Below are positions 8,373-22,589 of a stretch of 64,000 nucleotides of DNA, one piece after another. How positions within the stretch are numbered: position 1 is the stretch's first letter; each line of letters begins with the position of its first letter. The stretch is from a virus (taxonomy: Duplodnaviria > Heunggongvirae > Uroviricota > Caudoviricetes): IMG/VR virus record IMGVR_UViG_3300014205_000176. The stretch is one strand, 5' to 3'. The position numbers were made by a program, and so were the translations under genes. The notes under the pieces were generated by a model. The model had not been told where the DNA came from. It made no database searches and worked only from the letters and a program-made list of their open reading frames with translations.

Positions 8373-8626
8373 TACGATATAACCCATTTCATAATCTTCA
8401 ACATCACCAATATCACATATGCCTGCCAAAACCCAACCGCCGGCACACTTGGGAACAAATCAATAAAACAGTTGTTCCATAACCACTGTATCGGTAATGC
8501 CAACACCAATCCAAACATAATGGCATTTGCAATCCCCCCAATTACTATAGATAATATCCCAACGATAAATTGGGCTCCCGTCTTAAATGTGCGGTGAATT
8601 ACAGACGGCCGATACTCATTATACAT
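8372..8626 (-). CDS. membrane protein
   Basis: 84 aa, hydrophobic. Confidence 0.7.
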   Translation of the reverse strand: MYNEYRPSVIHRTFKTGAQFIVGILSIVIGGIANAIMFGLVLALPIQWLWNNCFIDLFPSVPAVGFWQAYVILVMLKIMKWVIS

Positions 8627-20682: not shown

Positions 20683-21300
20683 ATGGCAAAGACATCAACG
20701 GCAAATAATATTTCCATACCAGCTCCGAGAATTCATCCGGAGTTAGTTCAGGAAGCCAAGAAGCGGGAAGTCAAGAAGAACACCAAGGCTCGGCCGGCGC
20801 AGCAACGTAGCGACCGACAACCTTCGGTTGTTAAAAAGCCAACGGCCAAAGCTGCACCGAAAGCAGCCGCACCCAAGAGCAAGCGTGTGCAGTTGTTATC
20901 AATCAAGGATGCAAGTTCCGTGATTGACCAGATACGGATAGCATTCTCGGTCTCGGCGATTGGTTCGCTAGTGGGCATCGTGTTAGGGGCATCAATACCG
21001 CTGACAACGTTCATGATAGCACACCATGAAGTCAAGGAGTTCTGGTCATTCTACACGGCATTGGTAGCCGGCGGTCTGATTTTTTCAGCAAACAGTGTGT
21101 TCTTCTGGACCAAGGCAGCATTCAGAAGTTCTGTCAAAGCTCTAGGATTCGTTGTTCTAATTGAAGGGGCAATGATCTTGAGCAAGATTGAGTGGCTTGG
21201 ATATCTTGGGTTGGGAATTCTAATTGCTATCAATGCGGTAGCGAGTGGAGCCAACCTGGTCATCAAGCCGGCAGTTCCGAAGAAGCCGAGCTGGATATAG
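20683..21300 (+). CDS. membrane protein with a basic Lys/Ala-rich N-terminus
   Basis: KKPTAKAAPKAAAPKSK followed by about four TM helices. Confidence 0.8.
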   Translation: MAKTSTANNISIPAPRIHPELVQEAKKREVKKNTKARPAQQRSDRQPSVVKKPTAKAAPKAAAPKSKRVQLLSIKDASSVIDQIRIAFSVSAIGSLVGIVLGASIPLTTFMIAHHEVKEFWSFYTALVAGGLIFSANSVFFWTKAAFRSSVKALGFVVLIEGAMILSKIEWLGYLGLGILIAINAVASGANLVIKPAVPKKPSWI

Positions 21301-21512: not shown

Positions 21513-21755
21513 ATGAATGTAACGAAGGTATCTAGTACATTATATATTGCTCACGTGGAAGTACACGTACCGAATCAAGATAGTGAGGCGGGTTGGGTAC
21601 TTGATCGATTTGAGGGCGAGCCATGCCCGAGCGGGTTTGACTCCTGGGAACAATTGAAGGCTCGGTTATTGGAAGCTGGTTTTGAATATGACCCCAGCTT
21701 AGTGAAGCTGACTCGGTATGATCTAGGCACCACGAAATATCTATTCTTGATTTAA
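21513..21755 (+). CDS. hypothetical protein
   Basis: AAGGA RBS, 80 aa. Confidence 0.7.
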   Translation: MNVTKVSSTLYIAHVEVHVPNQDSEAGWVLDRFEGEPCPSGFDSWEQLKARLLEAGFEYDPSLVKLTRYDLGTTKYLFLI

Positions 21756-21882
21756 ACGCCACGGACCAACCAACCCGTTTCGAAGTCACCTTGCAAATGA
21801 TTAGCCTGTCTTCGAGGTACTCAGGCCGGTCTCTTTCCCCAGTTCCGAAACCCAACGGAATAGCCGACCTAATTCAACAGCC

Positions 21883-21911
21883 TTGACAGATAGTGGAAGG
21901 TTTAGTATTGT
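21883..21911 (+). promoter_or_regulatory. sigma70-type promoter
   Basis: TTGACA-17 bp-TATTGT. Confidence 0.7.
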
Positions 21912-21916
21912 GCATG

Positions 21917-22195
21917 AGACTTGCCATCGGTTCACCACCTACCGAGGCAATGCAGTGTGGAAACGTAGTTTCCCCTGCGTATGCAGTTGAGCGAGCCCAA
22001 TCCCCCTTGGGTTAGCTTGGTGCCGGTCTGCAAAGGTAGCATAGCTGACTGCGCCGCTGAGAAGCGGCAGAAGCGGCGAGAGCTGCTGAATCAAAACCGG
22101 CAATTTTTCAGATGGCCCGCTAGACAATTGATGGGCCGTATTTTCCTGGGTCGGCCGGACGTTTTAGATGGAGCCGGAGACCCAGGTCTCTTTTT
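21917..22195 (+). ncRNA. candidate structured ncRNA or long structured leader, family unknown
   Basis: Consecutive stems, a multibranch closed by TGCCGGT/ACCGGCA with two GAGA-tetraloop hairpins, and a final stem with a T-rich tail; starts just after the promoter. Confidence 0.55.
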
Positions 22196-22235
22196 ACCCA
22201 AAACCCAGGCCTATCACCCGGCCGGAAAGAAGAGT

Positions 22236-22589
22236 ATGAACCGCTGGCATTTAGACGATAAGTTCTGGAAGGTTGGCAAGATCGTAGTGATCATCGATTC
22301 CAAGGGCAACGGAGAGGCAGTTCTGACTACTATCACGAAGATAGGTCAGAAGTATGTCACGGCTCTTAGCAAGCGATTCTATGTCATGGGGTCCTGCATA
22401 CCAAGGCAGATAGGTTCGGCCAAGTTAGAGAACCCATTAGTTCTCTACACCATGGAGCAGATTAGCGAGTTAGTGTACATGCCTCAAGTTCAATCAGCTT
22501 TGTTGAAACTTATGATGGGTGCTCAACTCCTTCAAATTGGAGATGTTCTAGGAATTGAACGACCACAGCATTTGCGGAAAGTTAGGTAA
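22236..22589 (+). CDS. hypothetical protein
   Basis: Likely ATG at 22236; the longer ORF from 21981 has no credible start. Confidence 0.65.
   Translation: MNRWHLDDKFWKVGKIVVIIDSKGNGEAVLTTITKIGQKYVTALSKRFYVMGSCIPRQIGSAKLENPLVLYTMEQISELVYMPQVQSALLKLMMGAQLLQIGDVLGIERPQHLRKVR

Follow-up and report, generated by a model that had tools for sequence, protein, structure and literature searches.

A predicted structured non-coding RNA gene, conserved behind its own promoter in a small clade of huge phages

Introduction

Small regulatory RNAs of bacteria such as RsaE/RoxS, LhrC and cuckoo/CcsR use C-rich loops as seeds. The genomes of huge phages are known to encode tRNAs, tmRNAs and translation factors, and their non-coding RNAs are, to our knowledge, almost uncharted; nor do we know of any role ever found for RNAC and RNAD of phage T4. 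These two T4 RNAs (species 1 and 2 RNAs) are small and stable, of unknown role, and encoded in the tRNA gene region of the phage (PMC3014915), at 70908-71171 in the T4 annotation, and they are classed as late RNAs (PMC9697503).

Here we describe RNA X, a predicted RNA gene of a very large phage, located in a 64-kb stretch of DNA (64,000 nucleotides; the whole stretch analysed, hereafter the window). Like RsaE/RoxS, LhrC and cuckoo/CcsR, X has its own promoter, several hairpins with exposed C-rich, G-poor loops and a 3' stem followed by a U run, but it shares neither sequence nor covariance-model similarity with them, has no CCUCC or UCCC seed conserved to the letter and shows no enrichment of pairing at the ribosome-binding regions of the phage itself; furthermore, its most conserved part is a putatively pseudoknotted 3' domain that these RNAs lack. 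The T4 RNAs differ from X in position, lying at the distal end of the tRNA cluster whereas X comes first in its cluster, after a promoter of its own, and that promoter is of the host type, in contrast to the late RNAs of T4 (PMC9697503). A search of T4 69000-75000 with our covariance model R2, with filters off, gave a best score of 7.4 bits, and the whole T4 record yielded no match at E<=1.

Two other kinds of described RNA invite comparison. The SAM-II, preQ1, fluoride and guanidine-III classes resemble the predicted fold of X in the b-a-b'-a' order of their helices, the lack of a spacer between a and b', and an A-rich third loop (GAAUCAAA in X), and H-type aptamers and conditional terminators likewise combine invariant junctions and covarying peripheral helices with a U run after the closing helix. 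However, X matches no Rfam riboswitch, precedes no constant regulated gene and suggests no candidate ligand, and it carries two extra 5' hairpins that an H-type pseudoknot switch does not need. The put RNAs of phage HK022 and the boxA of rRNA leaders are similar to X in being structured RNA that immediately follows an early promoter and precedes terminators or untranslated RNA genes; in X, no boxA-like motif was recognised, and R2 found no match at E<=1 in the HK022 genome (NC_002166).

Results

The window comes from the genome of a very large phage (the corresponding public gene call sits on a 463-kb contig), and from about 12.4 kb onward its genes are on the plus strand only. X occupies a 480-nt gap between an 80-aa open reading frame (ORF) ending at 21755 and a 117-aa gene that starts with the ATG at 22236. 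The features of this gap are as follows.

21883..21911, plus strand: sigma-70-type promoter TTGACA-17-TATTGT, from a consensus scan, with the same geometry before every homologue
21916..22108 (approximate), plus strand: conserved RNA unit X (P1, P2, P3/P4 domain and U run), delimited by BLAST, covariance model and folding
21921..21950, plus strand: P1 hairpin, 10 bp with one bulge, loop UCACCACCU; helix in five of five variants
21950..21980, plus strand: 31-nt hairpin insertion that duplicates AUGCAG, in the window only
21982..21986, plus strand: linker UGCAG, 5' strand of a candidate pseudoknot, pairing with 22028-22032
21989..22018, plus strand: P2 hairpin, loop UCCCCC, kept in four variants with one-sided changes
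22021..22027, plus strand: P3 5' strand UGCCGGU; GCCGGUCUGC identical in five of five variants
22028..22032, plus strand: CUGCA, 3' strand of the candidate pseudoknot, with the pairing present in the variants; also the 5' half of the CTGC-AAAG-GTAG hairpin
22033..22069, plus strand: insertion of about 40 nt including the first GAGA hairpin (22053-22068), common to the window and the L001 lineage only
22072..22087, plus strand: P4 hairpin AGCGGC-GAGA-GCUGCU, covarying and always paired
22088..22109, plus strand: invariant junction GAAUCAAA, P3 3' strand ACCGGCA and AUUUUUC tail; GAAUCAAAACCGGCAA identical in five of five variants
22112..22199, plus strand: a stretch that is not conserved and folds as two hairpins, 22112-22139 and the terminator-like 22145-22186, the latter followed by a U-rich tail
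22236..22589, plus strand: downstream gene of 117 aa, borderline similarity to PF24203, the phage ProQ C-terminal-like domain

The preliminary description of this locus, made from the letters of the window, had proposed a structured non-coding RNA of about 280 nt with a promoter and a terminator of its own, and this reading is supported by the sequence comparisons, with the boundaries and the architecture corrected as follows. The promoter is present at its proposed site, with 10 of 12 consensus matches, as are the stems at 21921-21950, 21950-21980 and 21989-22018, the helix TGCCGGT (22021-22027)/ACCGGCA (22096-22102) enclosing CTGC-AAAG-GTAG and the GAGA-capped hairpins at 22053-22068 and 22072-22087, the hairpin at 22112-22139, and the pairing of CCTGGGTC (22145-22152) with GACCCAGG (22179-22186) followed by TCTCTTTTT. 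The proposed extent to 22195 fails: the conserved RNA is only about 190 nt long and ends at the U run after ACCGGCA, at approximately 22108. The terminator-like hairpin at 22145-22186 and its T-rich tail exist, but lie outside the conserved unit. Similarly, the hairpins listed as one unit hold together only in part, with the core kept and three hairpins being lineage-specific insertions.

Database searches at the DNA level did not reach any relatives of X. The blastn search of INPHARED phages gave no match, and scans for the exact core in IMG/VR, JGI metagenome contigs and 185,579 species genomes produced chance matches only. Homologues of X were reached solely via the neighbouring proteins. 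Through homologues of the downstream protein we arrived at contigs L001 and L002-L005 (a tblastn search of INPHARED phages with this ProQ_C-like protein found none), and the membrane protein encoded at 20683-21297, with 33 homologous proteins, led to contigs L230-L238. A covariance model (R1) built from the first three variants matched at the syntenic place in L233, L230 (80 bits) and L235-L237 (43.8 bits), always on the plus strand; the scores are 191.5 bits for the window and 183, 114, 80 and 44 bits for the relatives. Altogether, five distinct sequence variants of X were found in more than 10 contigs, at the syntenic place, all from environmental assemblies. The covariance model did not detect X in L240 or L241, even with filters off, in the 484-kb phage LR756508.1 or in 151 sampled Myxococcota genomes.

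As the preliminary description had suspected, X fits no known RNA family: Rfam 15 gives no match at the gathering score in the whole window and none at E<=10 in 21600-22400, and no Rfam match overlaps X in L001, L002, L230 or L235. ARAGORN and Rfam find true tRNA-Thr and tmRNA genes beside X in the relatives, and never X itself. An origin of X as a tmRNA-derived fragment was considered and set aside, the 10-11-nt identity to one tmRNA (E 0.04-0.2) and the 7-mers shared with others being treated as chance. For the record, the tmRNA of L235 (9305-9325) and the 3' domain of its X (8481-8499) have GGCCGGUCUGC and GAGAUAG in common (E 0.04), probably by chance, since other tmRNAs share no more than GCCGGUC with X.

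Judging from these comparisons, X represents a previously undescribed family of structured RNAs, belonging to a small clade of huge phages, that matches no catalogued family. The similarity between the window and L001 is limited to 21872-22107 (BLAST), and the size of X is about 190 nt in the window and 125-170 nt in the relatives. The 85 nt that follow in the window, with the hairpins at 22112-22139 and 22145-22186, are specific to it and resemble neither L001 nor L002. All five variants share a core that consists of P1, a GCAGUU linker, P2, P3 (GCCGGU/ACCGGC), an internal loop with CUGCRGA on one side and GAAUCAAA on the other, P4 and a tail AAYUUUU. The P1 helix persists although its bulge shifts, L002 has lost one complete base pair and L235 has an extended helix; at the place of P2, L235 has a different hairpin. 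Entire hairpins have been gained or lost across lineages without disturbing this core: the 31-nt hairpin at 21950-21980 is missing from L001, L002, L230 and L235 (alignments A4 and A7), and the insertion of about 40 nt, which also holds the 3' half of CTGC-AAAG-GTAG and shows one compensatory pair between the window and L001, is missing in L002, L230 and L235.

Conservation is strongest in the 3' domain and the linker, and not in the loops. The sequences GAAUCAAAACCGGCAA, GCCGGUCUGC and GCAGUU are identical in all five variants, and the invariant blocks of 16 and 10 nt (26 nucleotides) stand against only 54-81% identity in the nearby membrane protein. A run of four or five U follows the GAAUCAAAACCGGCAA block in every variant. 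P3 is a GC-rich stem of 6-7 bp, and in each variant an A and then four or five U come after it; a scan with the terminator consensus makes no call at P3 and the U run, the stem enclosing 30-70 nt.

On the plus strand, the segment 21916-22200 has a minimum free energy (MFE) of -121.3 kcal/mol (z -4.63), and none of 200 shuffles was as stable, compared with a z of -2.19 on the minus strand. For X itself, the plus-strand z is -4.0 in the window and -3.3, -1.3 (L002, weak), -3.3 and -2.6 in the other variants, and the independent MFE folds of the five variants yield the same architecture, with the minus strand weaker where compared. In one respect the fold departs from the preliminary description: the letters for a multibranch with separate hairpins are there, but in the window MFE favours nested helices over three hairpins in 22028-22087 by 4.6 kcal/mol (-39.7 vs -35.1), and the relatives are compatible with both.

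Compensatory changes were found across the five variants. In alignment A7, 94.7% of the cells are standard pairs and 7 pairs have changed on both sides; the covariation score is 0.226, compared with 0.145 +/- 0.019 for shuffles, none of 500 reaching it, and no more than 0.085 when the partners are slid by 1-3 columns, but given that A7 is a model-fitted alignment of five related sequences, these values indicate consistency and carry no formal significance, and the shuffle statistics overstate independence. The main source of the signal is P4, in which 5 of 6 pairs change on both sides while 100% remain paired, under loops that vary among GAGA, GAAA, GACA and GUGCAA. The P3 helix shows zero covariation, its sequence being invariant. 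The internal loop of the P3/P4 domain, as read from the sequence, would be able to form tandem G.A pairs.

In all five variants, (U/C)GCAG of the linker is complementary to CUGC(A/G), the segment immediately downstream of the P3 5' strand, and in L235 the sole substitutions in either segment (CGCAG with CUGCG) replace U-A by C-G and are thus compensatory. This one compensatory event is suggestive of a candidate 5-bp H-type pseudoknot between the linker and the post-P3 CUGC. The strand order would be b-a-b'-a' with no spacer, placing P2 in loop 1, and P4 and the A-rich GAAUCAAA in loop 3. In the window and L001, the same CUGC can alternatively form the small CTGC-AAAG-GYAG hairpin.

The site TTGACA-17-TATTGT is the best promoter-like site in 19-25 kb, and TTGACA-N17-TAnTGT has a single exact occurrence in the 64-kb window. 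All five variants are preceded by TTGAC(A/G), a 17-nt spacer and TAnnGT, with diverged spacer sequences. Transcription of X is probably early and by the host RNA polymerase, from this conserved sigma-70-type promoter. In the window, a 127-nt spacer (21756-21882) that separates the 80-aa ORF from the promoter has no counterpart among the relatives, in which the gene upstream of X ends at or beside the -35 hexamer.

Also borne out is the non-coding nature of X. No reading frame is open across all five variants, and coding by the 35-, 40- and 202-aa ORFs that overlap X was rejected, no frame being conserved: in L001 a stop comes four codons past the ATG equivalent to 21981, and the remaining frames are interrupted by indels of 1, 31 and about 40 nt. 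The 202-aa ORF from 21981 is a mere upstream extension of the ProQ_C-like gene, the start of which is fixed at the ATG (Met) at 22236 by its homologues; the PF24203 match of the 117-aa product has an E of 1.6e-5 and 26 bits against a cut-off of 27. Public gene calling lists this gene as a 200-aa protein (P0001) that starts inside X (window 21981-22235), and, going by the homologues, the N-terminal 83 residues of this call are an artefact. Taken together, comparative sequence analysis supports X as a real, non-coding RNA gene with a predicted fold, kept by very large phages of five or more related lineages.

Upstream of the start codon of the ProQ_C-like gene, AGGCC-N8-CGGCCGGAAAG is kept in L001 and L002. 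Within 22187-22235 of the window, base pairing is predicted between UCUCUUUUU, the U-rich tail after the terminator-like hairpin, and GGAAAGAAGAG, the ribosome-binding region of the gene.

In four of the five lineages, X is the first element of a cluster that also has tRNA-Thr and/or tmRNA genes. The order of elements after X is as follows.

L001: tRNA-Thr(UGU) at 47 nt, Y block, tmRNA, non-coding sequence, tRNA-Leu, terminator, ProQ_C-like gene
L002: Y, tmRNA, terminator, ProQ_C-like gene
L230: tRNA-Thr at 26 nt, tmRNA with its own TTGACA-17-TATAGT promoter
L235: 118-aa ORF, tRNA-Thr with its own promoter-like site, Y, tmRNA
Window: no tRNA or tmRNA; non-conserved hairpin, terminator-like hairpin, ProQ_C-like gene

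Neither ARAGORN nor Rfam at the gathering score detects a tRNA or tmRNA in the window, and the window lineage may either have lost these genes or never had them. There is no promoter-like site between X and tRNA-Thr in L001 and L230, so that the U run after P3 would not be a fully efficient terminator there. The intact state of X in the window, which has no tRNA or tmRNA, and the varying downstream neighbour argue for a function of X itself and not for a dedicated leader. A functional pairing of X with the ProQ_C-like gene was not retained: three lineages have them side by side or within one island, but in L230 and L235 X lacks this neighbour, and more distant homologues of the gene have neither the gap nor X upstream.

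Several other elements were observed in these islands. The Y block (L001:3345-3470, L002:2990-3110, L235:9056-9150; GGUGGUCGCCCC..GCAAGGAUG...CCUUGC) is conserved, non-coding and located directly 5' of the phage tmRNA genes; its Rfam matches, to permuted tmRNA, are all sub-threshold. Y is absent from the window, and in L230 its place is occupied by the TTGACA-17-TATAGT promoter. Unannotated non-coding stretches of 180-240 nt extend from the tmRNA to the terminator before the ProQ_C-like gene in L001:3860-4100 and L002:3485-3670. A promoter-like site, TTGACR-17-TAnAnT (CATGAT in L001), is found inside the tmRNA genes at the same position in L230:6405-6433, L001:3757-3785 and L235:9426-9454. Larger syntenic RNA islands with tRNA-Leu, -Met, -Lys and -Thr and tmRNA, and without X, are present at L240:8379-10455 and L241:9488-10320.

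Discussion

Our preferred reading, to which we tentatively assign a probability of about 0.35, is that X is a trans-acting small RNA that acts via its C-rich loops, while the 3' domain would terminate and stabilise it and offer a handle. X would be a stand-alone gene for a small stable non-coding RNA, transcribed early by the host polymerase from the sigma-70-type promoter and predicted to fold into an invariant 3' domain, made up of P3, the internal loop, P4 and a probable 5-bp pseudoknot, preceded by two hairpins whose loops are rich in C and poor in G. The exposed C-rich loops may pair with G-rich stretches in target RNAs, for example, the ribosome-binding regions of host messages, and the invariant pseudoknot domain would combine a leaky terminator with stability and a handle for proteins. 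In the relatives, read-through followed by an RNase P cut at the 5' end of the tRNA could free X from the tRNA-Thr precursor.

The composition of the loops is in accord with a trans-acting RNA: the apical loops of P1 and P2 contain 54% C and 4% G (48 and 4 of 89 nucleotides), compared with 27% each in the whole RNA. The P1 apical loop is C-rich in all five variants, and P2 follows with the exception of L235, where the loop is not C-rich. In four variants the apical loops are unpaired in both the MFE and the centroid folds, and in L002 three bases of the P1 loop are paired. By eye, the loops UCACCACCU, GAUCCCCUCUA and AUCUCCUU resemble the 3' tail of 16S rRNA, and the canonical CCUCC is not found in any loop. 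When the two X loops of the window were compared with 89 phage start regions, pairing was no better than with gene interiors (Mann-Whitney p = 0.4 and 0.18), and they had no advantage over shuffled loops; an anti-Shine-Dalgarno action on genes of this phage is accordingly not supported, the loops of the window showing no enrichment at its ribosome-binding regions.

The distribution of conservation, with its peak in the 3' domain and linker, is unusual for a seed-driven small RNA and would fit at least as well a protein- or ligand-binding RNA, of which it is more typical. X might thus be a protein-binding decoy or a ribonucleoprotein scaffold, which we consider possible if somewhat doubtful, with P3, the internal loop and the pseudoknot as the putative binding site of a protein from either the host or the phage, such as a factor of translation, RNA decay or termination, and the C-rich loops as secondary contacts. 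None of the five variants departs from the others in the 16- and 10-nt blocks, whereas P4 next to them covaries freely and the neighbouring proteins are only 54-81% identical; P3 lacks covariation, as though the sequence itself were read, and the potential for tandem G.A pairs in the internal loop points the same way. However, no known protein-binding RNA motif was recognised in X, and the ProQ_C-like gene is unlinked to X in L230 and L235, its distant homologues having no X upstream.

We regard a role for X in cis, as a control element that opens an early transcription unit, as unlikely. In one version, the P3 stem, stabilised by the pseudoknot, would be a conditional terminator akin to a riboswitch or attenuator; in the other, X would modify the polymerase or Rho, in the manner of put or boxA, for transcription through the untranslated structured RNA genes and terminators downstream. 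The position of X directly after the promoter, the A and four or five U after P3 in all variants, and the usual aptamer signature of invariant junctions, covarying helices and a candidate pseudoknot are all compatible with such control. Furthermore, the tRNA-Thr 26-47 nt downstream in L230 and L001, with no promoter-like site before it, would have to depend on read-through, and in the window the terminator-like hairpin is only about 40 nt from the start codon of the ProQ_C-like gene. Against this, the neighbour to be controlled varies, being tRNA-Thr, Y and tmRNA, a 118-aa ORF, or a terminator and the ProQ_C-like gene; promoter-like sites of their own precede tRNA-Thr in L235 and tmRNA in L230; and X has no similarity to Rfam riboswitches or leaders, nor does anything in the HK022 genome match the model.

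Quite improbable, in our estimate, is that X represents a new pseudoknotted sensor RNA that gates its own P3/U-run terminator, or else a new self-processing RNA freed from a tRNA precursor. If X were such a sensor, a small molecule or a host factor would set the rate of stopping and thereby gate the early phage tRNA-Thr, tmRNA and downstream genes.

Least probable of all is a mere structured 5' leader that protects or processes a tRNA/tmRNA precursor and survives in the window as a relic, because, even though X heads a tRNA-Thr and/or tmRNA cluster in four of five lineages, the window keeps the promoter, the core and the invariant blocks without any tRNA or tmRNA, the 26 invariant nucleotides and the covarying hairpin exceed what a leader needs, and the tRNA/tmRNA islands of L240 and L241 lack X.

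The X family is small, with five variants from environmental assemblies only, so that its reach is limited for now, and in public gene calls X is misannotated as the N-terminus of a protein. Nevertheless, X is a clean case, with a conserved host-type promoter, covariation, a likely pseudoknot, 26 invariant nucleotides and a place at the head of a tRNA/tmRNA cluster, and it echoes RNAC and RNAD of the T4 tRNA region. Should X act on translation or on transcriptional read-through, it would add an RNA layer to the takeover of host gene expression by these phages.
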